Part shown: in pieces, positions 1-13,106 of the stretch
Numbering within the stretch: position 1 is the stretch's first letter
Layout: each line of letters opens with the position of its first letter
Source: Candidatus Nanohaloarchaea archaeon
GTDB taxonomy: Archaea; Nanohalarchaeota; Nanosalinia; Nanosalinales; Nanosalinaceae
Direction of reading: 5' to 3'
DNA length: 13,106 nucleotides
NCBI GenBank assembly: GCA_042217695.1
Contig: JBDGSE010000015.1
Span: 1 to 13,106 of the forward strand
Translations under genes and position numbers: made by a program
The notes under the pieces: model-generated
Told to the model about the DNA's origin: nothing
The model's input: only the letters and a program-made list of their open reading frames with translations
Databases searched by the model: none

Positions 1-157
1 TAACTGATATCCAGTGCCCCAGGTGCGCGGGTCCCGAGGTCTCGTAGCCGACATAGGTCCTTGGAGAATCCTTTTCCAGTACATCATCAAGTTCGTCTTC
101 TGTAACGATTTCCTCGGTGTTCCTTAACACCAGCTCCTTTCTCTCTTTCTTGTCCAT
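1..157 (-). CDS. tyrS: Tyrosyl-tRNA synthetase, 5' part (runs off the left edge of the window)
   Basis: Manual translation from ATG at 157: MDKKERKELVLRNTEEIVTEDELDDVLEKDSPRTYVGYETSGPAHLGHWISV. This has the archaeal TyrRS N-terminal pattern (RNTEEIVT..EL; Y-x-G-Y-E-x-S-G) and the class I HIGH-type motif HLGH. SD-like AGGTGG lies just upstream. Not in the ORF track. Confidence 0.92.
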   Translation of the reverse strand, partial: MDKKERKELVLRNTEEIVTEDELDDVLEKDSPRTYVGYETSGPAHLGHWISV

Positions 158-302
158 CAGTTCCACCTACAAGATGTTTGAGAAGGAAATTCTTAAGTCA
201 GAGCTGGGTCTGGAGGGTTTTGAATGTTCAAACACGGCCGGGATAAAAGTACCCACCTTTCATTGGAGGTCAACACTGTTTTCTTTCTCGATTATTAAAA
301 CT

Positions 303-818
303 CTATTCCCCGGCGATGTCCGCTGTTTCTCCATCTGTTACCTCTTTCAGTTTTTCCGGGGAGAGTTTCGCGCCGACCAGTCTTGAGCCCGCCGCCGGCC
401 TCACCATGTCGTTTTCCATCACCGATTCCTCGATGTAGACAGGGATGTCCAGGTCGAAGGGGGAGACTCCACCGACCACGTACCCGGTAGCCTCTTCCAC
501 CTCGGAGGGAGATGCCAGCTCCACTTCTTCTTCAAGAAGACGTTCCAGTTTTTCCTCCGATACCCGTTTATCTCCGGCGCAGAGGACCGCGACAGGCTCT
601 TCTCCCATGAAAACGAGAGTCTTCACTATCTGGGATTTATCGATGTTGGAGTGCTGGACGGATTCTTCGACGGTCTCTGCCTTGGCGTGTATCTCGAAAT
701 CCAGGTCCAGGCCGTTTTTCCTGGCGTATTCCACTACTCTCTGTATGTTTTCGAGGTCTTCCTCCAGGAACTGTGTGAATGTCTCCATCTCCTCCAGGGT
801 CTGGTCAAAAGCTTTCAT
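303..818 (-). CDS. YbaK/EbsC-family aminoacyl-tRNA deacylase (trans-editing, INS superfamily)
   Basis: Motifs QIVKTLVF (conserved Lys), ATGYVVGGVSPF and AAGS. The track start (941) overlaps the pilin gene; ATG 818 (upstream AGGTAAG) or ATG 788 (upstream GGAGG) is more likely. Confidence 0.88.
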   Translation of the reverse strand: MKAFDQTLEEMETFTQFLEEDLENIQRVVEYARKNGLDLDFEIHAKAETVEESVQHSNIDKSQIVKTLVFMGEEPVAVLCAGDKRVSEEKLERLLEEEVELASPSEVEEATGYVVGGVSPFDLDIPVYIEESVMENDMVRPAAGSRLVGAKLSPEKLKEVTDGETADIAGE

Positions 819-847
819 CTTACCTGTGTTCTGCTCCAAAATTTTTT

Positions 848-1288
848 CTAACTCTCGATGTTCCAGGTGATATCTCCGCTGGCCCTCAGGTTTTCCAGAC
901 CGGCCTTGTCGTACTTCAGTCTCACGTCGAAGGTGTTGCATGACTCCGACCGGTTGAACCCATCTATCCTTGCCACGGTCGAGGCACCGACGGCCAGAGT
1001 GCTCTCGAGTTCGCGCCTGATTTCGGTGTTTTTCCGCTTCAGGGTTAGATCTGTTAAAGTGATCTGTCCTGTCCCCGCGTTTACGAACTGGATCTTCAGG
1101 ACGTGTTTTTCGATTCCGAAGTCCTTCACCTTTACCGGCTCATCCGACCAGCCCGAGTTGGTCCTGGTGCAGTCTGCCGAGGAAGTGTACATCAGGCCGA
1201 CCATGACGATGACCATTATGGCCACGAGCCCGGTCACCGCAAATATACCTATCCCGTAGGTGAGTTTTCCTCCGCCTTTAGAGGGCAT
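848..1288 (-). CDS. Type IV pilin-like surface protein (DPANN 'TYG'-type N-terminus)
   Basis: Short basic leader with KG, then LTYGIGIFAV and a hydrophobic helix. Beta-rich globular domain with two Cys and an NRS sequon; not acidic. Confidence 0.65.
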   Translation of the reverse strand: MPSKGGGKLTYGIGIFAVTGLVAIMVIVMVGLMYTSSADCTRTNSGWSDEPVKVKDFGIEKHVLKIQFVNAGTGQITLTDLTLKRKNTEIRRELESTLAVGASTVARIDGFNRSESCNTFDVRLKYDKAGLENLRASGDITWNIES

Positions 1289-1311
1289 AAAGATTTTTTC
1301 AAGGAGGCTGA

Positions 1312-1317
1312 CTTAAG
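1312..1317. promoter_or_regulatory. Putative shared TATA-like element (CTTAAG) of the divergent pilin/rtcA promoter
   Basis: Palindromic CTTAAG at the centre of a 51-nt spacer, 22-23 nt from both start codons, neither of which has a well-placed SD. CTGACTTAAG also occurs on the minus strand upstream of tyrS (192-201). Confidence 0.45.
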
Positions 1318-1339
1318 CTTTTCCTACTTTAACAGCGTT

Positions 1340-2335
1340 ATGATCGAGATCGACGGGAGCCGGGGAGGCGGACAGATGCTCCGGAATGCACTGAGTCTCT
1401 CTGTGATAGAGCAGGAGCCTTTCCGGATGGAAAACATAAGGGGTTCCCGGTCCAGTCCCGGCCTGAAAAGGCAGCACATGGAGGCGGTGAAGGTGCTCGC
1501 ACGGATTTCCGGTGCGAAGACAGAGGGTCTGTCGGAGGGCTCGACCAGCCTGGAGTTCGTTCCCCGGGGCCTGGAGCCGGAACCGTTCACCGCGAATATC
1601 GGGACTGCGGGAAGCACGACACTTCTGCTGGACGCTGTTATGCCCGTCACGACACAGTTCGACGACTCTTTCCGTCTCCGTGTGAAGGGAGGTACGGATG
1701 TGAGATGGTCGCCTACCGAGCTCTACCACCGTTACGTAAAGCTGCCCTTGCTGAAGAGATACGGTTTTGAGGCAGAGCTCGAACTTGGGAAGACGGGTTT
1801 CTACCCGAAAGGTGGGGGCGAACTCACGCTGGAGACAGAACCCTTCTCCATGCAGCCCGTAAGACCTGGCAGGGGCGAACTCCGCCGCTTTGAGATCTAC
1901 TCCAAGGCCTCTGCCGGACTGAGAGATGCGTCAGTCGCGGAAAGACAGGCCGGTAAGGCCGCGAAAAGGTTGAAGAAGTCGCATATCTCCGTTCCCGTTG
2001 AGAAAAAGCACTGGTACGAGGACACTCTTTCGCCCGGCTCCTCGCTACTGGTAAAAGCGGTCTACGAGGACACGGTCGCGGGCTTTGATGCGCTGGGAGA
2101 GAAAGGCAAGCGCGCGGAAAAAGTCGCTGAGGAAGCCGTCGAGGATTTCGAGGCCTTCCATTCAACGGACGCGAACGTCGACAGCCACATGGCCGACCAG
2201 CTGGCGGTGTTCCTCGGTGTCGTCGGCGGAGAGATCACTGTTCCGGAGGTCACGGATCACGTCCAGACCGGTCTGGAAGTGGTCAGGAAGTTCGGTAAAG
2301 AGGGCGGACTAGACGGACGTTTTATCTCCTTCTGA
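1340..2335 (+). CDS. rtcA: RNA 3'-terminal phosphate cyclase
   Basis: MIEIDGSRGGGQMLRNALSLS, NIRGSRSSPGLKRQH, IGTAGSTTL, GGTDVRWSP, GFYPKGGG, and VDSHMADQL containing the adenylylated His. True start is ATG 1340; the track start 1103 overlaps the pilin gene. The 3' end overlaps the convergent gene by 27 nt. Confidence 0.95.
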   Translation: MIEIDGSRGGGQMLRNALSLSVIEQEPFRMENIRGSRSSPGLKRQHMEAVKVLARISGAKTEGLSEGSTSLEFVPRGLEPEPFTANIGTAGSTTLLLDAVMPVTTQFDDSFRLRVKGGTDVRWSPTELYHRYVKLPLLKRYGFEAELELGKTGFYPKGGGELTLETEPFSMQPVRPGRGELRRFEIYSKASAGLRDASVAERQAGKAAKRLKKSHISVPVEKKHWYEDTLSPGSSLLVKAVYEDTVAGFDALGEKGKRAEKVAEEAVEDFEAFHSTDANVDSHMADQLAVFLGVVGGEITVPEVTDHVQTGLEVVRKFGKEGGLDGRFISF

Positions 2336-3268
2336 CTCCCACCTTGGCGGCAGCTGGTCGGGCCGCTCACGGGCTTTCTGGTCTATCTGGTCGGCTCTGA
2401 ACCGGCTCTGCAGCGGGAAGTACTCTGTCTGCTGATTGTGTTCTGTGCGCGGAACCTTTACGCTGTAGAGCTGCGGTTCTCCCCGGTCGAACAGCAGGTG
2501 TTCAAATATCTCGTCGTGTTCTGCATCGAAATGCAGTTCGTGTACGTGTCCATCGTCAAACGAGGATAGGTGGAGGCTTCTTTCTGGCAGAACGTCTTTC
2601 CTCTGGTAGTTGTAACGCCTGCCGCCCATACCCACCAGGAACTTGTCCTCTATCGCTCTGGCGTAAGGCATGTGCACGTGGTCGTATATGAACATGTCAG
2701 AGTTTTCCAGGCTTGGAGTAACGCCTTTCACCGTGTTCTCGTTCGTGTAACGTTTTACGGAGAAAAGGTTTTCCAGGAACCCTTCGCGTGTGTCGGGCCA
2801 GTTCAGTTCATCTTCCCGCTTGTCATGACTGGGGTGGTGGGCGGCCTGTATCCGGGTTCCCTCTATCTCTGTCTCGAAACCTTCATCGAATATCTCGTAG
2901 TCGACATCTACATCAAATGGTTCCGAGGAGTTTATCTGCCTGAACCATCCGGTAAAGTTCCGTCCCGAGACCTCTTTCTGGTCCTTGTCCTCGTCTCCTG
3001 CCACGAGTTTTACCTCGACATCTTCCAGCGATTCGAGTATCCTGTAGACATCGTTGAAACTGCCGGAGTCGCCGAGTATCCAGGTCTCGTCCACGTCATA
3101 GAACTCTATGTACTCGTTAAGCTGGGAACCGACCTCTTCCAGTTACTGGTCGTGCCGGTTTACCTCTTCGAAGGCGTGTATCTCGGCTATCTTGAGGACG
3201 TTGTAGTTTTCTTCGATTCCAGAGTCTGGCTTGTAGTTGGGCCCGGAGTTGCCGCGCCCACGTCTCAA
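2309..3268 (-). pseudogene. Degenerate calcineurin-like metallophosphoesterase (YfcE/Vps29-like), interrupted by an in-frame TAA at 3143-3145
   Basis: Reading upstream of the track ORF (2309..3094) in frame gives ...NYNVLKIAEIHAFEEVNRHDQ*LEEVGSQLNEYIEFYDVDETWILGDSGS. Motif equivalents: I KIAEIH, II LGDSGS, III VAGDED, IV AAHH, V YDHVHMP. The start is uncertain (TTG 3268, or ATG 3307 with a further TGA at 3284-3286). Confidence 0.6.
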
Positions 3269-3399
3269 GGCAGACCCCGTGTTTCAGAACGCTCCGGATT
3301 TGGACATTCGAGGGGTGGTATGGATACCTCCGCTGAGACCCCTCTCCTCATGGATGAAAATGGAGAAAAATGAATTAAATATGTAACCCATTACAGGCT

Positions 3400-3825
3400 T
3401 TACTCTATCTCCACGTCTCTTCCGCTGTCCTCCGTCTTCTCTGCGCTTACTTCCAGGACCCCGTTCTCGTACTCTGCAGTCACTGTTTCGGGGTCTACCG
3501 GAGAAGGCCAGGCGATTTTCCTTCTGTAGCCACGGGAGGAACGTTCTCTCTGGTAGTAGTTCTCTCCCTCCTCTTCTATCTCCTGGTTCACTTCTGCGGA
3601 GATCTCTACCATCTCCTCGTCGGCCTTCACGTTTATCTCGTCTTTCTGGACGCCTGGCAGATCCGCGGTGAGAACGTATTCGCCGTTCTCTTCACGTAGA
3701 TCTACAGGCGTCTTCGTGGCGATGCTTCCTGCAACATCTCTTCCGAAGTCCTGGAACTGGTTGAAGAACTCCTCCATCTGGTCGAAGAAGTCGTCAAAGC
3801 TGTCCCGTCTTCTGAGTCTTCTCAT
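3400..3825 (-). CDS. hsp20: Small heat shock protein (Hsp20/alpha-crystallin family)
   Basis: TPVDLRE, ADLPGVQKDEINV, YQRERSSRGYRRKI, AEYENGVLEV and a C-terminal VEIE (IxI-type) motif. ATG 3825 is preceded by SD AGGTGGT. Confidence 0.95.
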   Translation of the reverse strand: MRRLRRRDSFDDFFDQMEEFFNQFQDFGRDVAGSIATKTPVDLREENGEYVLTADLPGVQKDEINVKADEEMVEISAEVNQEIEEEGENYYQRERSSRGYRRKIAWPSPVDPETVTAEYENGVLEVSAEKTEDSGRDVEIE

Positions 3826-3837
3826 TGTTACCACCTG

Positions 3838-3859
3838 TTTTTATTTACGTCGATAAAAA
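3838..3859. promoter_or_regulatory. Inverted repeat TTTTTAT-N8-ATAAAAA upstream of hsp20 (candidate operator/promoter)
   Basis: Perfect 7-bp arms filling most of the 36-nt spacer just upstream of the hsp20 SD. Confidence 0.4.
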
Positions 3860-3861
3860 TT

Positions 3862-4065
3862 TTAATCTTTCTGTTTTATGCGTTCCATCTGTTCCTCGAG
3901 GAACTCCACCTGGTCGTGTATCTCGTTTATGAGCTGCTGGGCCTGGTCCTGTTTCTTCTTCATGCTTCCCTTCGCGTTCTCGTCCTTGACCTCTTCGAAC
4001 TCTTCTTCGGCCTCCGTCACTTCCTCTTCCAGCTCCTCCAGTAGCTCGTCGTAGTCCTCTGTCAT
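3862..4065 (-). CDS. Small acidic coiled-coil/helical-hairpin hypothetical protein (67 aa)
   Basis: Acidic composition like the neighbouring genes, heptad pattern, and TTTAAA about 23 nt upstream of the ATG (leaderless-type promoter). Confidence 0.75.
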   Translation of the reverse strand: MTEDYDELLEELEEEVTEAEEEFEEVKDENAKGSMKKKQDQAQQLINEIHDQVEFLEEQMERIKQKD

Positions 4066-4102
4066 AGAAAGGTTTTTCTTCTCGCTGGTTTAAACAAGCT
4101 TT

Positions 4103-4312
4103 GTGAAACGTAAAAACCGCGTAAAGCAGAAGGCAAGAGAGATAGTGGAGGCCGGAGAGAGGCCCTCGGCCGCCCGACTGTCGTCGGAGCTTGACTGGCC
4201 GGAGCAGGACGTCCACCGATGCCTCAACTCTCTCGAAAAGGAGGGCGAGGTCTCCACCTACGGTAGAGAGGTCCTGGGAAAAAAGTACAGGATGGTGGGT
4301 TTGAACCGCTGA
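4103..4312 (+). CDS. Small winged helix-turn-helix protein
   Basis: PSAARLSSELDWPEQDVHRCLNSLEKEGEV followed by a beta-hairpin wing (STYGREVLGKKYRMV). The GTG start is uncertain. Confidence 0.75.
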   Translation: MKRKNRVKQKAREIVEAGERPSAARLSSELDWPEQDVHRCLNSLEKEGEVSTYGREVLGKKYRMVGLNR

Positions 4313-4313
4313 A

Positions 4314-4706
4314 TCACTGTACCTGTGGCGTGGGTACAGGCGGCAGCAGGTTCAACGTGTCCGCGACGCCAACCGCTTCCGAGATAAGCTTGCGGTATAG
4401 CTCGTTCATCAGGGGTGCAGATACCTGATCTGGCAGGTCGTTCTCTTCCTCCCAGGTCTCGAGTATTTCCTCTAGCTGGCCTTTCCAGAGCACGTTGCCT
4501 GACATCTGGATCTCCGCGATCACGGAGTCGTCGGCCTCGTACTGGACCGTGAACTCGTAATCTATCTTCGCCACCTTCTCCTCGAAGGCGTCCACCTCGA
4601 CTTCCTCGACGTCTTCAAGCTCCGGGAGGTAGTTTATCTGGATGTTGCCGGCGGCTTCCTGTTTTTTTGAGGCTTCGAGATTGTCGACATTAAATCCTAC
4701 TATCAT
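4314..4706 (-). CDS. Conserved archaeal hypothetical protein, possibly SecB-like fold
   Basis: MIVGFNVDNLEASK... gives four predicted beta strands followed by helices and a C-terminal LNLLPPVPTP, resembling a family common in DPANN and Euryarchaeota. The SecB-like call is an inference from the secondary-structure pattern. Confidence 0.7.
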   Translation of the reverse strand: MIVGFNVDNLEASKKQEAAGNIQINYLPELEDVEEVEVDAFEEKVAKIDYEFTVQYEADDSVIAEIQMSGNVLWKGQLEEILETWEEENDLPDQVSAPLMNELYRKLISEAVGVADTLNLLPPVPTPQVQ

Positions 4707-4757
4707 ATCTACGTCTTCACACCAAGTTCTTTATTATTTCCGCACCACACCTCTTCC

Positions 4758-5279
4758 ATGGGGTACATCGAACAGTATGGAACACTTATCGTCGCCCTTA
4801 TGCTGGGAGGAGGCTTTGCCTTTGGAGGTATAGCCTCCTACGCAGGTATAGTCGGGGGCGGCTCCTCGAACACCGCCAACCAGGGCCAGCGCAATTTTAC
4901 CCTGCCATCCAGTAATTACGTTGAAGGTGGTTTCAACCGGAGCCTGCAGGTGCAGCGTTACCTGGCGTCCCAGAAGGACGTGGTGTTCACGACTGTTTAC
5001 TACAGTGAAAGGAAGGGGCTGGAGGCTGCAAGGCAGCTGAAGAGCCTGAGGGACGTATTCGGGGACCGGCTCTACATAGCGGCTGCAAACAAGTCAAGAC
5101 ATCAGGTGCCTCTCAGCGAGAGCAGTATAAAGAGTTATCCTGTAGCTGTGCTGCTCGGCGGCAACCAGAACTCGCCCACGGCGGTTGTCAATGAGGTTAC
5201 CTCCAATAGGGTTAGTTCGGCGGCCTGTAGTGTTATTAGAGATCTTGGAGAGCTTGCGGCGTACTGTACTACTAACTAG
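4758..5279 (+). CDS. Membrane-anchored extracellular protein (N-terminal TM helix; possible degenerate thioredoxin-like domain)
   Basis: Hydrophobic residues 9-33, a Gly/Ser/Asn linker, sequons NFT/NRS/NKS, a 'YPVAVLLG' cis-Pro-like strand and a C-terminal Cys pair. Confidence 0.75.
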   Translation: MGYIEQYGTLIVALMLGGGFAFGGIASYAGIVGGGSSNTANQGQRNFTLPSSNYVEGGFNRSLQVQRYLASQKDVVFTTVYYSERKGLEAARQLKSLRDVFGDRLYIAAANKSRHQVPLSESSIKSYPVAVLLGGNQNSPTAVVNEVTSNRVSSAACSVIRDLGELAAYCTTN

Positions 5280-5419
5280 GCGTGGCTCGGGCCGTTATAC
5301 CTGTATCTTATCGCTACACGTCTCTGTTACAGAGTCTCCAGTGTTTCTGAGTATGTTTTAAGGATTTGCAGCTCTGTGTTCCATAGAAGGCTTCCCCGGC
5401 TTTAAAGCGCTCGTGGCTA

Positions 5420-8221
5420 TTAAATCTGGATGTCGAATGCCTTGGCGAACTCTTCGTCGCCCTGGACGTTGTCCGAATACTTCTCCAGGTTCTCGTCCGC
5501 GTCGTAGTCCTCGTGATAGGATGCCGAGACCGCGCCTTTCTCTCCTAACAGTGTTACAGAGGCTTTGTAGTCTTTCGCAAGCTGACGGGCCAGCTGTATC
5601 AGGAGCCCGACGTTCTCTGTAGGTATTTTTTCTTCCAGAGCCCTGTCCTCTATCCTGGGTCGTAGGAAGGATTCCAGGCTGTTCTCCAGCCTCTCCAGCT
5701 CTTTCTCGTTCTCTTTCCAGGCTCTGTAGAGGCTCCTGGCTCTTTTAATCAGTGTACCGCTTTCCGTTTCCTCCAGTTCAGCTTCCTCGTCCATGTAATC
5801 TGCCAGTCTCTCTGCCTTTTCCCGCTTCTCCTGGTTCTCCTGTTTGAATCTTTCCACGGTGTCTATCAGCTGTTCCGGTTCAACCGAGAAGATGTCGCAC
5901 AGTTCTCTCTGTACCTTCCTGGGTGTTCCTCCAAGAACTTCTTCGCGGAGAGAGTCTGCTTCCAGTCCGAGTTCGCTGGCCGCTTTATCTACCCTGTTTT
6001 CTATGGCCGACAGGAACTGTTCTGCTGCCTCTCCGGCCCTGTATTCGATCCTTATGACGCCGTCCTGGACTTTCTTGCTGCCGGTGATCACGAACTCTCC
6101 GGCCTCTCCTGTCCGGGCCAGGTGGGTTCCGCCGCATGCCTCGACGTCGAACTCCTCCTCGTTTTCTATCCTTACAATCCGTACAGTGTTTTCTGGAGCG
6201 GCACCTCCCTGGTAGATGCGGAAGCCGTACTGATTCTCTGCCTCGGTCTTCGGGACACGTTCCTTCTCTATCCTCATGTCCTCCTGGATTACATCTCTTA
6301 CCTGGTCCTCTATCCGGTCCAGTTCTTCCCTGGAGAGCTTCTCGTAGTGCGTGACATCGAGTCGGCCCTTTTCGACCGTCTTGTGGGCGCCCGCCTGCCA
6401 TATATGGTCTCCCAGGAGTTCTCTGGTAGCTCCGTTTACCATGTGGGTGGTGGAGTGGTGCTGCATCAACTGCCTGCGGCGCTCCCACTGTATCCTGGCC
6501 TTGACGGTGTCTCCCTTTTCGAGGTCGTGGTCCGGAGCCCTGTGGAGCACTATGTTGTCCTGTTTCTGTACGTCCACCACTTCTTCGTCATCGATTCTCC
6601 CGTGGTCAGGTTCCTGGCCGCCGCCTTCAGGGTAGAATACTGTCCTGTCGAGGACCACCCAGTCATCTCGTAGCGCGACCACTTCTGCGTCGCATTCTCT
6701 CCGGGTCTCGTCTCGGTAGTAAAGCAGTTCTGTCTCTTCCACTCCATCGAGGTCGAACTTTTTCTCCACGTCCTCCACTGTTTCCTCGTCCGTGGCCAGC
6801 CGGGCATAGAAGTCCTCGGGCACCTTGAAACCGTGTTCCTCCATCATCTCGGGTGATACGCCGTGACTCTCGTAGAGCTCTATCATCCTGTCGAGGGACG
6901 GTTCTCTGTCCAGGGAGGCCAGTTTTTCACGGGCCTTCTGCCGCGATTTCTCGTATTTCTCTTCTTCGACCTCCAGTATCTTTTCCACCTCGTCCATCCT
7001 GTCTTTCAGTTCGGGGAACATCGGCTCGAGTTCCTCGGCGTGCCACTCCATCACCTCTTCGATCTCGAGTTCCCAGTCGTACTTCTCTATGAAGTCTTTT
7101 GCTCTCCGGTACACCATCCGCAGGTTGTGGCCTCCTCCCGTGTTCGAAGGGAGCTTGCCGTCAGCCAGGGCGAAGAGCAGGGCTCGAGCGTGTTCCGCCA
7201 CCGAGTAAAGTGCGGCCGCGGGCTTTATCTCGTCCTTGAGTTCTTCGACGGGGACGTTCATCTCGTCGGCTATCTCCGCCCATTTCTCGTCTATATCCTC
7301 GACTTCGTCCACGTTCAGGTATGAGGAGTATGGCAGGAAGTCCTCCCACAGACCAGGGTCGACTTCAAGTCCCGTGCGCTCCTTCATTTTTCCGATGGCG
7401 AGAGGCATCACGGATTCGTAGGATGTCTGGTCTCCGCGGGATATCCAGGTTATCCTCTCGTGACCCATCCCCATGTCAAGGACTTTCAGGTCCAGTTCCT
7501 CGTATCCTTCCGGTGTCACCTCGTAGAACATGTAGACCTGGTTCCACAGCTCGAGACCATCCACGAAGAACTCCATGCATGCGCCGAGATTTCCTCCGCC
7601 GCCCCAGGAGTCTTCGTGCAGTATGAGTTTTTCTTCAGGTATACCCAGCTCGTCGACAGCGAACTCGAACATGTCCCGGAAGTAGCGATCCTGGTCGTAC
7701 TGTTCCGATTCCTGGAAACAGGTCTGGCCTATGTGGTCGTGCAGTACATAGTGTCTTCCAGTTACACCGACATTGTCTACATCGTTAAACCTGAGAGAGG
7801 GTTGAGGTACAACGAGTTCGGGTGCAGGAGGTTCCGCCTCCCCTGAAACCACGTAGGGCTGGAAGTCGTAGATCGCTGCGCCGACGAACTCGACGTCATC
7901 CCGCCACCGGGCGACTACCGGGTATCGGTCTATGGGTTCGTATCCGCGTGAGGCCATGAAGTCCCGGAATATCTGCCAGGTCTCGACGTAGCTGTATTCT
8001 TCTTCAGTCGGGGAGTCGCCTATGAACGTGTACCCTCCCGAGCATTCGGGTTCTCCGCAGACCTTCCTGTCCGGGTCGGAGCTCCAGAAGTACATCCCAC
8101 AGTTCTCGCACTGTGAGCGCTCAAAACCTTTTTCTCTGAGTACGTCTGTGGCGAAGAATTTTTCCGGGTTGGAGGAGGCCTCCTCCTTTATCTCGGATTT
8201 CAGCTCGTCGAGGCTGGGCAT
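5420..8221 (-). CDS. alaS: Alanyl-tRNA synthetase (archaeal type, full-length)
   Basis: N-terminal Zn-ribbon CENC...CGEPEC, YPVVARWRDD, QPSLRFNDVDNVGVTGRH, LDMGMGHER, FYPEGGGQEPD, and editing motifs HHSTTH and EACGGTH. Confidence 0.98.
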   Translation of the reverse strand: MPSLDELKSEIKEEASSNPEKFFATDVLREKGFERSQCENCGMYFWSSDPDRKVCGEPECSGGYTFIGDSPTEEEYSYVETWQIFRDFMASRGYEPIDRYPVVARWRDDVEFVGAAIYDFQPYVVSGEAEPPAPELVVPQPSLRFNDVDNVGVTGRHYVLHDHIGQTCFQESEQYDQDRYFRDMFEFAVDELGIPEEKLILHEDSWGGGGNLGACMEFFVDGLELWNQVYMFYEVTPEGYEELDLKVLDMGMGHERITWISRGDQTSYESVMPLAIGKMKERTGLEVDPGLWEDFLPYSSYLNVDEVEDIDEKWAEIADEMNVPVEELKDEIKPAAALYSVAEHARALLFALADGKLPSNTGGGHNLRMVYRRAKDFIEKYDWELEIEEVMEWHAEELEPMFPELKDRMDEVEKILEVEEEKYEKSRQKAREKLASLDREPSLDRMIELYESHGVSPEMMEEHGFKVPEDFYARLATDEETVEDVEKKFDLDGVEETELLYYRDETRRECDAEVVALRDDWVVLDRTVFYPEGGGQEPDHGRIDDEEVVDVQKQDNIVLHRAPDHDLEKGDTVKARIQWERRRQLMQHHSTTHMVNGATRELLGDHIWQAGAHKTVEKGRLDVTHYEKLSREELDRIEDQVRDVIQEDMRIEKERVPKTEAENQYGFRIYQGGAAPENTVRIVRIENEEEFDVEACGGTHLARTGEAGEFVITGSKKVQDGVIRIEYRAGEAAEQFLSAIENRVDKAASELGLEADSLREEVLGGTPRKVQRELCDIFSVEPEQLIDTVERFKQENQEKREKAERLADYMDEEAELEETESGTLIKRARSLYRAWKENEKELERLENSLESFLRPRIEDRALEEKIPTENVGLLIQLARQLAKDYKASVTLLGEKGAVSASYHEDYDADENLEKYSDNVQGDEEFAKAFDIQI

Positions 8222-8303
8222 GGGACTGTCTTCCGGGTGGAGTCTTTTATCTGGTTTGGATAGATAGAAAAAGAAAGGTTAGGAAGTTGCAGAGGCGGAG
8301 AGC

Positions 8304-8615
8304 TTAGAAAAGCTCGCCCAGTCCTTCTGCAGCTTCTTCTTCGGAGGCTTCTTCCTCTTCTTCCTCCTCTTCTTCTGCTTCCTCTTCTTCCTCTTCTGCG
8401 GATTCCTCTCCGCCAGAGGTGGCCGGTGCTGCGCCGGTTGCGACCGCTGTCTCCATCGCTTCCTCGATGTCGACATCCTCGAGAGCGGCTACGAGAGCCT
8501 TGACCTCGGAATCATCGACGTCGAGATCCGCGGCGTCAACAATGGCCTGCAGGTTGTCTTCGTTTACTTCCTTTCCTGCCTCGTGAAGAGTAAGTGCTGC
8601 GTATACAAGTTCCAT
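8304..8615 (-). CDS. rpl12: 50S ribosomal protein L12 (aP1, stalk protein)
   Basis: [38 protein letters not shown], an Ala/Glu hinge and C-terminal EGLGELF. SD GGGTGA upstream. Confidence 0.97.
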
Positions 8616-8651
8616 ATTTGATTCACCCTGGTGTCCCGTTCCCCGCCAACC

Positions 8652-8659
8652 CTTAAAAA
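8652..8659 (-). promoter_or_regulatory. Putative TATA box (TTTTTAAG) of a stand-alone rpl12 promoter
   Basis: AT-rich box about 37-44 nt upstream of the rpl12 ATG, leaving room for a short SD-containing leader. Confidence 0.45.
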
Positions 8660-8693
8660 GATATAGTACATAGATGAATACAAACAGGTTTTC

Positions 8694-9404
8694 GTGGTGA
8701 GGTTTTCCGAGCTGCCAGGCTGGACCCGTGTGAAACTGACAGATACAGGAGAGAAAGAACTTTGGCGCAGGGTGGACGAGTTCGGAGGTGTTAAACAGCT
8801 CTCAGAGGCGTTCGATTACTCTTCTACAAAGATGTACAACTGGCGCAACAAGCACTCTTTTCTGCCCGTGGGTTTCGTGAAACAGGTGATGGGCAACGAG
8901 GCCACTGGCGAGGTCCTCGCGATCAAGGGCAGGGGAAGAAGTTCCGTGATGAAAGACCCGGAGTTCCCGCTGGATGCTGGAGACGAGCTCTTGACGCGTG
9001 TGGATGAATCAGTGGTCGTCAACTCTGAAGGTACACCGGTGTACCAGGCCCGGGAACGTTCACTGGTGGACCGTTTCGACGAACTTCTGCAGGAACTGGG
9101 AGATGTCCCCACCACGTTTTACAGCAGAAGCCTGTACGAGTTAAGGTTCCCGAAGTTTCTCCACGAGCTGTTCGATTCCATGAACCATCAGGAGGACTTC
9201 GCCGCACTGGTTGACGAAACCGGCAAGATAGAGGACGGAAGAGTTGAGGCGGACGGGAAGTCCCTTGATGTAGCTGATTTCGGAGCCGAACTATACTCGC
9301 GTGAGAAACGTATGGAACTGGCGCTGGAACGCGGTGACTCGGAAGAGGTTATACGTTTGATGAACAAAGAGGCAGAAAAGATACGGAAAGCGTTTGGAGG
9401 ATAG
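8694..9404 (+). CDS. HTH-domain protein with degenerate LAGLIDADG-like region, antisense between rpl10 and rpl12
   Basis: XRE-like HTH ([28 protein letters not shown]), then [25 protein letters not shown] (aa ~99-113) and [11 protein letters not shown] (aa ~169-179), which resemble decayed LAGLIDADG helices. Codon and amino-acid usage match the host genes. Confidence 0.8.
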
Positions 9405-9426
9405 GAAGGAGAAAGAAGAGAGGGTT

Positions 9427-10491
9427 TTACTCCTCTTCTTCGTCCTCGGAATCGGATTCTTTGTCGGTCTCTTCTTCGTCAGATTCGTCTTCCGAGTCCT
9501 GTTCCTCAGCTTCCTCCCCAGAGCCCTCTTCGGATTCTCCCTCTTCTGTTTCTTCTTCATCCTCTCCCTGTTCGGAAGATGGTGTCTCAGAAGATCCTCC
9601 AGAATCTTCGTCTTCTTCGAGGTCTACGGATTCAAGCTCGAGTTCCGAGTTCAAACCTTCCGCGTTTGAAGAGGCGTGGGCGAGGATCTCCTCGATTGTG
9701 TCCTCGGTGGGGATTCCCTCGCTGATGGAGAGGTTCTTCGCCTCCTGGACGGCCTGCGCGATGACTGTCGGCGCGGTTCTCCCGGTGACGTACCCGGAGT
9801 TGACGGCCAGGTTGAAGGCTGCACTCGATGCGGATTCGATATCTGCGCGGTACTGTTCGGTGTCGATGTCGAGTTCTTCCGCGGTGAACAGTTCTCCATT
9901 GCTGTAGGCCACGTCGAGGTCGAGCCCTATCTCCAGGGGTTCGATTCCGACCTGGTTCAGGATCTCGGCGGTATCGTCGTCGATCACTTCGCCTTTTTCC
10001 ACGATCACCGCATCTTTCTGGACGTGGATGGTACCGTCCTCTACCTGTACCTGGGCTCCTGCGCTCTGCAGTTTGCCAAGCATGGGTCCGGGACCGATAC
10101 CTGTGTCGCCTTCAGGCAGCACGATGTCGTTTGGTGCGACCTCTCCTCCCTGTGCTGCGGCCGAGGTCTTGTTCGACTGGATAAGGGAGTAGAGCTGGAA
10201 CGGGTCCCTGTTGGAGAAGATGAAAGCCGGCTGTACAGCTTCGTTCTCCCTGAGTTTTTCGATATCCTCCTTTCCGGAGTTCTCGATGGCGATATCCATC
10301 AGGGTCTTCCGGGACATCTTGATCTCGGCGAAATCCTTCATCTCCTTCTTGATCTCCTGGAGCTGTTTCGCCGGGAGGTTGTGCATGTCCAGGATGCCGA
10401 TCACCGGGTATTCCTCCAGTTTTTCTGCGAACTGTTCGACTTTCTTCTCTTTCTGCTCCCGGGTCATCCGCTTTGGTTTGGGTTGCACCAT
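9427..10491 (-). CDS. rpl10: 50S ribosomal protein L10/P0 (uL10) with long acidic tail
   Basis: LPAKQLQEIKK, MSRKTLM, AQGGEVAPNDIVLPEGDTGIGPGPML, LNQVGIEPLEIGL and AFNLAVNSGYVT. SD GGAGGTG upstream. Confidence 0.97.
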   Translation of the reverse strand: MVQPKPKRMTREQKEKKVEQFAEKLEEYPVIGILDMHNLPAKQLQEIKKEMKDFAEIKMSRKTLMDIAIENSGKEDIEKLRENEAVQPAFIFSNRDPFQLYSLIQSNKTSAAAQGGEVAPNDIVLPEGDTGIGPGPMLGKLQSAGAQVQVEDGTIHVQKDAVIVEKGEVIDDDTAEILNQVGIEPLEIGLDLDVAYSNGELFTAEELDIDTEQYRADIESASSAAFNLAVNSGYVTGRTAPTVIAQAVQEAKNLSISEGIPTEDTIEEILAHASSNAEGLNSELELESVDLEEDEDSGGSSETPSSEQGEDEEETEEGESEEGSGEEAEEQDSEDESDEEETDKESDSEDEEEE

Positions 10492-10595
10492 TATCTGGAC
10501 ACCTCCGTGTTTATGGTGACGCTGAAAACGAAGATTCTGGAGAATCTTCTTGGAAAAGATTCCTCCGGAAATCTTTGAATCTCTGATCTTCGCAT
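10491..10595 (-). CDS. Putative 34-aa bridging mini-ORF between rpl1 and rpl10 (MRRSEIQRFPEESFPRRFSRIFVFSVTINTEVSR)
   Basis: ATG immediately follows the rpl1 TAG and is preceded by GGAGGTGA. It is open for 34 codons and its TAA overlaps the rpl10 ATG (TAATG). Confidence 0.45.
   Translation of the reverse strand: MRRSEIQRFPEESFPRRFSRIFVFSVTINTEVSR
10530..10576. repeat. Two related tandem palindromes (AAGATT...AATCTT)
   Basis: GAAGATTCT-GG-AGAATCTTC (10530-10549, perfect 9-bp arms) and AAAGATT-CCTCCGGA-AATCTTT (10555-10576). Confidence 0.75.
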
Positions 10596-11216
10596 CTAGC
10601 TCACCTCCACTGTCGGACCCATGGTGGTCTTTACCAGGACCGACTTCACGTTGTTGTCGCCCTGTGGAAGCCTGTCGCGCACGAAGTCGTATACTGCGCT
10701 TGCGTTCCGCGCGGCTTCTTCTACTCGGTCCTCCTTGCCTATCTTGACCTGCATAAGAGGCTGCTCTCCCAGTCTCAGGGTCACAGTGTTCCGCAGGTCT
10801 TCGATCTCGTCCGTCGGATCGCTTCCGGGAGGCATCGGGTCCGGCATCATGTTGCGCGGACCGAACACCTGTCCCAGGTGCTGACCGATGTCGGGCATCA
10901 GGGGAGCCTCCGCGATGAGGAAGGAGTACTCCTCTGCCAGGTCCTTTGCCTTGTTCGGGTTTTCGTAGTATTCCTCGAGTTCGTCCTCGGTTATCTCAAG
11001 GTCGGCGTTGTCGGCGTTCTTTGCGAGTGTGTCGCCGATCACCGCGACCTTCACGTCCTCGTCGGCCTGGTACGGAAGTTTCAGGTCCTCGTTGAAACGG
11101 TTGTTGGGGTCTGAAAGATCCAGGCTCTTGAAGTTGATCACGAGGTCGAGGCTCTGCAGGAAATTGCGTTCATCCGAGTTCTCGACTGCCTCTTCGACTG
11201 CTTCTTCAAAGTTCAC
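10596..11216 (-). CDS. rpl1: 50S ribosomal protein L1 (uL1)
   Basis: RNFLQSLDLVINFKSLDL, FLIAEAPLMPDIGQHLGQVFGPRNMMPDP and VKTTMGP. GTG start with SD GGGTGAT. Confidence 0.97.
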   Translation of the reverse strand: MNFEEAVEEAVENSDERNFLQSLDLVINFKSLDLSDPNNRFNEDLKLPYQADEDVKVAVIGDTLAKNADNADLEITEDELEEYYENPNKAKDLAEEYSFLIAEAPLMPDIGQHLGQVFGPRNMMPDPMPPGSDPTDEIEDLRNTVTLRLGEQPLMQVKIGKEDRVEEAARNASAVYDFVRDRLPQGDNNVKSVLVKTTMGPTVEVS

Positions 11217-11260
11217 TGGAGATCACCCTGTGATTTCTGTGTAGGAGAAAATCTTTGCAT
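11213..11260 (-). CDS. Putative 15-aa bridging mini-ORF between rpl11 and rpl1 (MQRFSPTQKSQGDLQ)
   Basis: SD GAGGTGG overlaps the rpl11 TGA, ATG is at 11260, and the TGA overlaps the rpl1 GTG (GTGA). Confidence 0.4.
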   Translation of the reverse strand: MQRFSPTQKSQGDLQ

Positions 11261-11272
11261 TTTCGTTCCACC

Positions 11273-11770
11273 TCAGATACCTTCCTCGGCTTCCAGCCGG
11301 TCGTCGTATTCTCCGTTGTCGATTTTCTGCTCGAATTCGTATGCCTCGGTTCCCTCGACTGTTACTCCCATGGACTGCGCGGTTCCGATGACCTCCTTCA
11401 CCGCGCCTCTCAGGTCCATGGCCAGCAGGTCGGAGGCCTTCATCCTTGCGATTTTACAGGCCTGTTCAAAGCTCATGTCTGCGACCTTGTTCTGGTTGGG
11501 TTCGCCGGAGCCTGAGTCTATACCGAGCTCGTCCTTTATCAGGACTGCTGTTGGAGGCTTACCGACCTCTATCTCGAAGTCGCCGGTTTCCTCGTCGATG
11601 GTGACATCGACGGGCACCTCCATTCCCTCGAACTCCTCAGTTTTATCGTTGATGGCGTTTACAACCTCTCCCACGTCTACCGGCAGAGGCCCAAGTTCTG
11701 GTCCTAGCGGAGGGCCTGCGGATGCAGATCCGCCCTCGACTAGTGTGGAAATCGTTTTCTTGTCTCCCAT
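11273..11770 (-). CDS. rpl11: 50S ribosomal protein L11 (uL11)
   Basis: LVEGGSASAGPPLGPELGP, FEGMEVPV, VGKPPTAVLIK and KEVIGTAQSMGVTVEG. Confidence 0.98.
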   Translation of the reverse strand: MGDKKTISTLVEGGSASAGPPLGPELGPLPVDVGEVVNAINDKTEEFEGMEVPVDVTIDEETGDFEIEVGKPPTAVLIKDELGIDSGSGEPNQNKVADMSFEQACKIARMKASDLLAMDLRGAVKEVIGTAQSMGVTVEGTEAYEFEQKIDNGEYDDRLEAEEGI

Positions 11771-11792
11771 GTTTATCTTTCCTCGTCAAGTA

Positions 11793-12227
11793 TCAGTTAC
11801 TGGCTTTTTTGCGTACCATGTCGACATCGACCGTTGTAGGAATTGGTACCGCGGCATCGAGTAACTCGATCGTGACCTCGCGGTTGGTCTTGTCTACCCT
11901 GTTTATCTTTGCCTCCTCGCCCTTGAACGGTCCGCCCACGACTTCTACCGTGTCGCCGACCTCGAGCTTGATCTCCTCTGCTTCATCGCTGAGGTATTTC
12001 TCGATCTCGTCTATCTCGACTTCTTCCTCGATAACCCCGTTGATGTTCCTGGAGTTGCTTGCGAGCTGTTTTATGTCGGCCTCGTTCCCCTCGATGAAGA
12101 TGTAGCCTCGAAGGTCTTCCGGGTGGAAGAGCGCCTTTATATCCAGGTTTTTGTTCTTGATCTTGCTGTGGACCGTGTTGATGGCGGTCTTTTCTCTTCC
12201 ACGCGTGGTTCGGGCAGTGAGTATCAT
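11793..12227 (-). CDS. spt5: Transcription elongation factor Spt5 (NusG homologue)
   Basis: NGN domain (RTTRGRE, LRGYIFIEG) and KOW motif (GDTVEVVGGPFKGEEAKI), in the canonical position between secE and rpl11. Confidence 0.97.
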   Translation of the reverse strand: MILTARTTRGREKTAINTVHSKIKNKNLDIKALFHPEDLRGYIFIEGNEADIKQLASNSRNINGVIEEEVEIDEIEKYLSDEAEEIKLEVGDTVEVVGGPFKGEEAKINRVDKTNREVTIELLDAAVPIPTTVDVDMVRKKASN

Positions 12228-12530
12228 CTATCTAACCTCCTCTGAATCCAGGGTTTTCAGTCCCCCCGTTATCAGGACCAATCCCTGGCTCGCGGTCTGG
12301 TTTCCAAAGCTGATGTACTGTGGTAACAGGTTTGCCATTATATAGAACGCGAAGCCTATCAGGCCGATTATGATTATGCCTGCGCCGGTCACTTTCGCGC
12401 TCATCTCGAACTCTTCCCGGTCCGGCTTCTCCGATATCTTCAGCACACGGCGGTACTCCTGCAGCCGGTGCTTGATTCCTCTGGCCGATTTCCTCAGCTT
12501 CTCGGCAAACTTTTCAGGGGTTAACTCCAT
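12228..12530 (-). CDS. secE: Protein translocase subunit SecE/Sec61-gamma with N- and C-terminal extensions
   Basis: EYRRVLKISEKPDREEFEMSAKVTGAGIIIIGLIGFAFY. SD GAGGTG upstream; the stop abuts the spt5 ATG. Confidence 0.95.
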   Translation of the reverse strand: MELTPEKFAEKLRKSARGIKHRLQEYRRVLKISEKPDREEFEMSAKVTGAGIIIIGLIGFAFYIMANLLPQYISFGNQTASQGLVLITGGLKTLDSEEVR

Positions 12531-12545
12531 TTTTTACACCTCTTA

Positions 12546-12609
12546 AACCCGCAGCTAGAAGAGAACTCGAAACTCGAGTCCCTCCCACCAGAGGTGGTGC
12601 CAACGGGTT
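12546..12609 (-). promoter_or_regulatory. Structured 5' leader (three-way junction) of the secE-spt5-L11-L1-L10 operon
   Basis: Outer stem AACCCG/CGGGTT (12546-12551 with 12604-12609) encloses hairpins CACCA-N4-TGGTG (12586-12599) and ACTCGA-N3-TCGAGT (12565-12579, extendable by G-U pairs). Confidence 0.5.
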
Positions 12610-12630
12610 ACAATAGATAGGAGAAGAAAG

Positions 12631-12638
12631 TTTTATAA
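12631..12638 (-). promoter_or_regulatory. Putative TATA box (TTATAAAA) for the secE operon
   Basis: Close to the archaeal TATA consensus; the predicted start site (~12610) coincides with the start of the structured leader. Confidence 0.55.
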
Positions 12639-12648
12639 GCCGACTGGC

Positions 12649-13053
12649 TCAGTCGAGCTGGAGACACCGGTGATATATGGCGTCTCCGTTGTAAACCAGT
12701 TTCACCCTTGATTCTCGCTGGATCGTGTTCTGGAGATTGATGGTGAAGGATTCCTGTGGCGGCACCAGCTGGGGGGAGAACGATCTCACGTCTGCAGGCG
12801 CTCCCTGCACGAACACTCCCAGTTCAGTAACGTTTATCGTCTTCGGGTTCCCGTTCCTCACTACGATATGTGTCCTCGAGTTCTGGTTGTAGCACTGTTC
12901 CACGTTCAACTCGGTCAGCCTGTAGTTGAAGCCGCTTCTTGGCTGGCTCTGCATGAGGTCCCTGGAGGTGAAGTACAGGGTTGAGGCTCCTGCCAGGGTT
13001 ATCGTTATCAGGAGTACCGTGGCGACTATCGGGGTGATTCCTTTACGGTTCAC
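12649..13053 (-). CDS. Archaeal type IV pilin/archaellin-like protein with class III signal peptide
   Basis: MNRKG|ITPIVATVLLITITLAGASTLYF is a PibD/FlaK-type cleavage site plus hydrophobic helix. Also VVRNGN strand, two Cys and an NVT sequon. Confidence 0.88.
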   Translation of the reverse strand: MNRKGITPIVATVLLITITLAGASTLYFTSRDLMQSQPRSGFNYRLTELNVEQCYNQNSRTHIVVRNGNPKTINVTELGVFVQGAPADVRSFSPQLVPPQESFTINLQNTIQRESRVKLVYNGDAIYHRCLQLD

Positions 13054-13106
13054 GGTTGGAGTTTGGACTCTCGAGATTTAACAGTTGATGGAAAAAGGAG
13101 GGAGGG

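Follow-up and report, generated by a model that had tools for sequence, protein, structure and literature searches.

Why should two consecutive spacers of a ribosomal-protein operon each be filled by a single open reading frame (ORF) that stops precisely on the start codon of the next gene? The question is raised by the rpl11-rpl1-rpl10 operon on the minus strand of a 13,106-nucleotide (nt) stretch from Candidatus Nanohaloarchaea archaeon (assembly GCA_042217695.1, contig JBDGSE010000015.1, positions 1 to 13,106; hereafter the window), in which the L11/L1 and the L1/L10 spacer both carry a palindromic insert. Our reading, to which we give a probability of about three in four, is that these are selfish inserts that persist only where termination-reinitiation is relayed across them, and that spread by landing at start codons, as judged from their positions.

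The stop codon TGA of rpl11 (uL11; 11273..11770, minus strand as are all features of the operon; NCBIfam PRK01143, 223 bits, above cut-off) is overlapped by the Shine-Dalgarno (SD) motif GAGGTG (11268..11275). Relatives with an empty junction read TAG-AGGTG-7 nt-ATG at this position, and the motif would be the ancestral rpl1 SD, now preceding mini-ORF 1 (11213..11260; 15 codons, MQRFSPTQKSQGDLQ and stop). The ATG of mini-ORF 1 lies at 11260, +12 from the rpl11 stop, and its TGA (11215-11213) overlaps the GTG start of rpl1 (uL1; 10596..11216; PRK04203, 216 bits, above cut-off; ATG in most relatives) by 4 nt, as GTGA (position -4). The spacer measures 56 nt and contains a second, GTG-started frame ending at -11. 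Two hairpins make up the insert: H1, GAAAATG-CAA-AGATTTTC (11247..11264), with a 5' arm extending into the old spacer and ATG, and H2, GAAATCAC-AGG-GTGATCTC (11219..11237), holding the new rpl1 SD AGGGTGA. The 3' end of rpl1 reads GGAGGTGAGC-TAG, and the SD at this end, GGAGGTGA (10601..10608), would likewise be the ancestral rpl10 SD, now preceding mini-ORF 2 (10491..10595; 34 codons, MRRSEIQRF...EVSR and stop). Here the ATG, at 10595, abuts the TAG of rpl1, and across a spacer of 104 nt the TAA overlaps the rpl10 ATG by 1 nt, as TAATG (position -1). This second insert, of a 'long' subtype, holds an inner hairpin AAAGATTTCC-GGA-GGAATCTTT (10555..10576) and a perfect one, GAAGATTC-TCCA-GAATCTTC (10530..10549), both enclosed by an outer CGAAGAT/TTTTCAG stem, and the predicted RNA fold of 10480-10610 has z = -3.17. 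Within its degenerate H2 lies the new SD GGAGGTG (10500..10506) of rpl10 (uL10/P0; 9427..10491; PRK04019 models, best 303 bits, below the cut-off of 331). The preliminary description of the operon had reported the two open mini-ORFs behind strong SDs at the upstream gene ends, both stop/start overlaps, a hairpin in each spacer and separate SDs for the downstream genes, all of which were recovered at matching coordinates. It had also judged two such overlaps unlikely to arise by chance. Taken alone, the two spacers would be bridged with probabilities of 0.213 and 0.006 under dinucleotide shuffling, and of 0.36 and 0.22 with start and end kept and the frame freed, so that the window by itself is only suggestive, and it is the counts across genomes that establish non-randomness.

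These counts derive from 57 rpl1 loci in 61 genomes, with junctions scored only where the downstream start aligned with residue 1 (unaligned starts, N runs and missing genes were excluded). Short junctions (-11 to +15 nt) account for 35 of 44 L11/L1 and 21 of 33 L1/L10 cases. All 21 long spacers (34-112 nt, two of them identical) keep an open frame that bridges them, ending at -4 to 0 in 20 cases and only at -11 in one, against 2.8 expected from dinucleotide-shuffled spacers and 4.8 with start and end kept and the frame freed. According to a quick tree (47 rows; 10 of the 57 loci excluded), sister genomes of a single genus do not share the same filled junctions. Since most relatives are short and sisters differ, the short junction is taken as the ground state and the long one as the result of insertion.

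An insert profile trained on the L11/L1/L10 spacers only was applied to a held-out set, the S10-spc cluster from 40 relatives, where 747 junctions were scored (S17 starts, not determinable, were excluded), 603 of them shorter than 30 nt and 135 of 30-160 nt without N. A spacer was called bridged when an ATG or GTG frame started between -8 and +20 from the upstream stop and ended between -8 and +4 from the downstream start. By this definition 43 of the 45 long spacers marked by the profile are bridged, compared with 7.8 expected after deletion of 1-2 nt, and of the two exceptions, read by eye, one relays through two ORFs and the other begins with TTG; the binomial value of 1e-30 is overstated because kin share inserts. 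The profile left 90 of the long spacers unmarked; 20 of these, several of them weak-scoring inserts, have a bridge, where 7.1 would be expected. Those without one belong mostly to S3/L29, L15/SecY or the two final junctions, and many show a TATA-like box when read by eye. Altogether, 21 junction types of the cluster contain bridged inserts. In the source genome of the window, a start codon marks the end of 13 profile matches (E up to 2.2), each with an ORF ending between -10 and +10; another five sites, selected for being bridged, are left out of this count. The genes behind the 13 are rpl1, rpl10, DnaJ, S7, RpoP, S4, L10e, S6e, S15, L39e, two ATP synthase subunits and an RFC-like gene, and a role specific to ribosomal proteins, as envisaged earlier, is not supported for an insert that also precedes DnaJ, RNA polymerase and ATP synthase genes. 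A genome-wide table (269 spacers, 30 bridged) served for leads only, because our gene caller misplaced some starts (e.g., that of rpl11).

The aligned spacers define a repeat of two hairpins, H1 (GAAAATC-nnn-GATTTTC) and H2 (GAAAACAC-GAG-GTGTTTTC), with the loop and 3' arm of H2 making up the SD. The inserts measure ~45-150 nt, the basic unit being H1, 5-12 nt and H2, with additional nested hairpins in long forms, and their recurrent 3' ends combine the SD with a stop/start (TTTTCGA-GTGA and TTTTCAAC-TAATG). The H1 pattern is present in 43 of 61 genomes, with at most 20 copies, and a reversed control pattern in none of the 61; the genera g12, g15, g16, g19 and g23 gave 0 matches to the motif. 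In 59 distinct copies the H2 arms covary, 5.8 of 7 positions being paired versus 4.58 with swapped arms (0 of 2000 swaps reach 5.8), a signal that is missing from 31 other spacers with an SD (3.29 versus 3.19). The 104-nt insert of the window represents a longer subtype, in which H1 encloses two nested hairpins; five members of this subtype align with 76% column identity and show double changes in 8 of 24 consensus pairs. Besides the window's copy, two members lie at S19/L22 of another genus, where the nearest relatives of the L1/L10 insert are found, one at L1/L10 in a third genus, and one in the source genome itself (G000), behind a tRNA-like 3' end. Of 17 matches to a strict motif pattern, 15 lie in nanohaloarchaeal-type records (titles include Nanohaloarchaea, Nanohalobium, Nanosalina and Asbonarchaeaceae), none in mycobacterial ones, and the other two, in Anaerolineales and Woesearchaeota records, are without the arrangement. 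Together with an assembly of 757 kb and salt-lake runs, this distribution points to a nanohaloarchaeal host. Thirteen of the 15 precede a start codon, 12 bridged from ATG or GTG and one from TTG (by eye), with six duplicating inserts already counted. No IMG/VR virus matched two strict patterns, exact patterns being insensitive, and Rfam gave five weak matches in 8000-13106, all below the gathering score and none inside the spacers.

We conclude from the sequence comparisons that what is conserved appears to be the open frame and its end point, not the peptide. The H1 segment GATYTT is read in three frames (23, 11 and 7 cases), the mini-ORFs have 13 to 46 codons, and the distance from their ATG to the next start takes 22 values from 38 to 145 nt. 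In contrast, 60 of 64 stops fall at -4 (24), -1 (25) or 0 (11) relative to the next start. The inserts are not inherently stop-free, as the off-frames contain 93 stops in 2172 codons, compared with ~46 expected per frame. The in-frame QRF shared by both window mini-ORFs is real. As a conserved motif it was rejected, because it occurs in 7 of 64 mini-ORFs read in three frames; it results from a shared 9-mer that happens to lie in the same frame, and the peptide is regarded as a by-product on the same grounds. Concealment of the SD by H2 beyond the usual level was likewise considered and is not seen, computed accessibility being 0.39 in inserts and 0.36 in other spacers.

Where the inserts land can be read from their offsets. 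The start of the mini-ORF tracks the start position that the gene has in genomes with an empty site (Spearman 0.69 for 63 inserts and 0.82 for 23 junction types), and the window's ATG at +12 after GAGGTG is the common empty form of L11/L1. The displaced gene starts with GTG at 14 of 64 filled sites, rpl1 of the window included. The L10e, S6e and S15 copies of the source genome have a TATA-like box upstream (by eye), which implies that the target is the start site itself and not internal junctions alone. The repeat flanking filled sites is mostly the start codon plus 0-2 nt. [quoted passage not shown] About 4 of 81 bridged inserts, among them those at L15/SecY in L061 and at L6/L32e in L090 and L092, carry SD and start twice, in a duplication of 15-28 nt.

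These data would fit the following course of events. A short non-coding palindromic insert lands, judging by position, at or just behind the start codon of a gene. In the sequences, the old SD and ATG now open a frame running through the insert, and the 3' end of the insert brings both a fresh SD, placed in H2, and a stop codon abutting or overlapping the start that was displaced. An insert of 50-100 nt would probably silence an essential gene unless the ribosome were carried across, and only copies with an open frame ending on the new start would survive, later indels being filtered likewise, because the downstream genes probably depend on termination-reinitiation; the peptide itself would be junk. 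The counts demonstrate selection on the frame statistically; translation of, and reinitiation across, the insert are inferred. The earlier proposal of a palindromic insert family that is tolerated only where frame and coupling are kept is supported by the occurrence of the family across the genome and its relatives, the patchy distribution, the held-out bridging and the off-frame stops. According to the available text of PMC6728339, the downstream genes of 9 tested Haloferax pairs depended on upstream translation, and an SD does not initiate translation de novo; the available part of PMC10666635 reports that reinitiation falls by 60% at 13 nt and is gone at 22 nt. Such strict dependence, and loss beyond ~20 nt, would account for the frame filter if nanohaloarchaea behave alike.

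Several observations weigh against this reading. The reinitiation limits come from Haloferax, a distant lineage, and related genomes are non-independent samples. The nearest neighbour lies in the same genome for no more than 2 of 67 inserts, which does not demonstrate recent hopping within a genome; for 37 of 67 the nearest insert lies in another genus at another junction, and old dispersal or horizontal spread may fit better than a recent burst. For 27 of 67 the nearest match shares the junction, and some of these may reflect inheritance and loss. A general target duplication was not found among 81 bridged inserts (position-wise excess at most z 2.6). The searches for a mobilising enzyme, which covered the Y1, reverse transcriptase (RT) and GIY-YIG families (DDE transposases were not searched for), yielded no candidate beside the inserts: Y1 (HUH) transposase PF01797 is found neither in the source genome (83% complete) nor in any of 36 family genomes; RTs occur in 6 of 36, none beside inserts, with no insert-profile match in the six loci; and in 12 short-hit loci that were read, no small GIY-YIG gene is flanked by the hairpin motif. 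The RT loci hold four YADD proteins of ~330 amino acids or a cut piece, three of them long; two weak matches are not RTs. The ~330-residue YADD RT genes (L115-L119), two of them downstream of pilin-like genes, are probably diversity-generating retroelements.

Among the rival explanations, the open frame could mainly keep a U-rich insert covered by ribosomes, protecting it from premature transcription termination (polarity by FttA, also named aCPSF1), with the new SD initiating the next gene de novo. The SD present in every insert is in keeping with this, the source genome encodes FttA (TIGR03675, 839 bits), and archaeal polarity is probably due to FttA according to the available part of the review PMC12548453; anti-polarity may therefore contribute. 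However, ribosome coverage alone needs no stops exactly at -4, -1 and 0, and Haloferax transcripts with long untranslated parts are stable, according to what is available of PMC6728339, so as the whole explanation we consider it unlikely. Less probable still are domesticated regulators, that is, leader peptides or hairpin switches setting ribosomal-protein ratios or L1/L10 feedback, which had been offered as a second possibility in the preliminary description. Inserts are common in ribosomal operons, the H2 arms covary and the long subtype has double changes, but the source of arm covariation may be the machinery that forms or recognises the hairpins in DNA. The inserts are absent from most scored L11/L1 and L1/L10 junctions (the 35 and 21 short ones) and patchy, unlike an autoregulatory leader with its conserved RNA mimic at one position throughout the relatives; three frames are used and no peptide is conserved, no Rfam leader reaches gathering level, and SD accessibility is no lower than elsewhere.

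Slightly less probable again is the view that the element is built with the bridge as a fixed part, so that individual copies need not be selected for it. The recurrent 3' ends could be taken in its favour, as could the fresh long-duplication inserts of L061, L090 and L092, which automatically copy SD, stop and start; yet a fixed register would mean one length and one frame, where 22 distances and three frames are found, and the element contains stops in its other frames. This spread largely refutes a fixed design, which likely explains the origin of the bridge and not its upkeep. Finally, excision of the inserts as mRNA introns by the tRNA splicing endonuclease, suggested by related hairpins within long tRNA introns of the source genome (by eye), is hardly credible, as an excised intron would not require an open frame and the predicted folds, inspected by eye and without a motif search, lack a bulge-helix-bulge where the insert begins and ends.

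Returning to selfish inserts kept by a translational relay, one may speculate on how they move. In a scheme that we regard as rather doubtful, the element would home to start codons without a transposase: host machinery acting on structured single strands would insert the same hairpin modules at translation starts, into tRNA introns and at tRNA 3' ends. The form found at translation starts would have evolved into a self-contained 'ribosome relay cassette', entered through the old start and left through its own SD and stop/start, that spreads between essential genes. In the source genome, tRNAs with long anticodon-loop introns lie at C6:15735-15930, C12:6305-6498, C28:11127-11319 and C30:51598-51733, and these introns consist of similar GAAAA..TTTTC hairpins (by eye). 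Further hairpin copies, with 15-22 nt direct repeats, lie behind tRNA 3' ends or a terminator (C1:113-260 and C15:12750-12840; by eye). ARAGORN at lowered threshold was noisy (190 calls), and our statements on tRNAs are limited to loci read by eye; no tRNA was called in L098.

Known repeat families offer partial parallels. The earlier comparison with repetitive extragenic palindromic (REP) sequences and Rickettsia palindromic elements (RPEs) is probably misplaced, and mycobacterial interspersed repetitive units (MIRUs) are the closer analogue. RPEs insert in frame within protein-coding genes, and a possible case here is one 27-nt look-alike in the acidic rpl10 tail. It is a 27-nt inverted repeat (93%) between the EDEDSGGSS-coding part of rpl10 (9589-9615) and the L1/L10 insert (10524-10550), which could pair across 908 nt or be the relic of an in-frame element; chance is likely, and the acidic rpl10 tails of relatives are too variable to decide. 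MIRUs, in the available parts of PMC12548453 and PMC3184786, are 40-100 bp repeats with internal inverted repeats that sit on start codons within operons; they contain a small ORF that is coupled, at -4, to the gene behind it, and relatives have empty as well as filled sites. The nanohaloarchaeal inserts are likewise short repeats at in-operon start codons whose ORF overlaps the neighbouring stop/start (43/45 and 21/21). Unlike MIRUs, they have an archaeal host and A/T-rich GAAAA/TTTTC arms instead of G+C-rich inverted repeats, use three frames with endings at -4, -1 and 0, and include nested hairpins and two-ORF relays; they may also lack the uniform tetranucleotide duplication of MIRUs, and tandem (variable-number) arrays are not seen in them. 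Likened by description, without sequence comparison, the insert would work like a MIRU and is not one by host or sequence.

Termination-reinitiation in Haloferax volcanii, as far as described in the available parts of PMC6728339 and PMC10666635, shares the -4/-1 overlaps and the SD inside the upstream frame, but in the present case the insert itself creates the upstream frame, a throwaway mini-ORF, and the evidence is that of comparative statistics. Neisseria REP2, in the available part of PMC3184786, also has two internal stem-loops, a ribosome-binding site and a start codon and precedes genes; it differs in containing a promoter and acting at 5' ends, and that part makes no mention of a relay handed on by the preceding gene. 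The REP/BIME elements with RAYT (Y1) and the Ssn/SRM elements share the short extragenic hairpins in clusters (PMC11893778, available part), whereas the archaeal inserts sit on start codons, and neither a Y1 enzyme in 36 family genomes nor a hairpin-flanked small GIY-YIG gene in the 12 loci read was found. The literature searched, from which subscription papers and supplements were excluded, holds no account of such repeats in Nanohaloarchaeota or other archaea, and neither do the available parts of PMC13343696 and PMC10969869.

Some further observations concern the operons themselves. Contigs from DNA runs X1 and X2 show 0 differences to the window over the L11/L1 spacer, as do X1 contigs (two pieces) over the L1/L10 spacer; both runs are from one study, and X1 may be the source of the window. 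One X2 contig (depth 8) skips 51 nt, a multiple of three, at 10526-10578 of the L1/L10 spacer, and may represent a shorter in-frame variant or a different species. A 236-residue ORF without Pfam or NCBIfam match (8694-9404, plus strand) lies between rpl10 and rpl12/P1 on the opposite strand and interrupts the usual L10-L12 pair, and uL10 of genus g10 (L007, L016, L023) has an additional 45-residue, helical-looking C-terminal domain beyond the acidic linker. Two tandem mini-ORFs relay across one long spacer at dnaK/dnaJ of the source genome (G000 C6:32510-32646), L23/L2 of L089 and L2/S19 of L097 (by eye). Between L32e and L19e in L090-L097, a conserved 50-residue CxxC zinc-ribbon ORF stands in the spc operon of families f3 and f4. 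The L14 gene was not found in the 83% complete source assembly, from which the S10-spc cluster is therefore probably absent.

The inserts would thereby extend the MIRU design to archaea, and dozens of insertions at 23 junction types amount to a natural mutagenesis experiment that bears on the reinitiation-versus-unfolding question. They predict many unannotated translated ORFs of 13-46 residues in nanohaloarchaeal genomes, and warn that such spacers are not to be taken for riboswitches or leader peptides. Movement with no evident transposase is puzzling; were the start-codon-homing scheme true, selfish DNA would have a novel way of spreading, one that would also keep supplying minimal archaeal genomes with microproteins and tRNA introns. 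For the organisms themselves, the frame filter suggests that symbiotic DPANN archaea may be unable to start most operon genes de novo, and that their ribosomes must terminate within a few bases of the next start.

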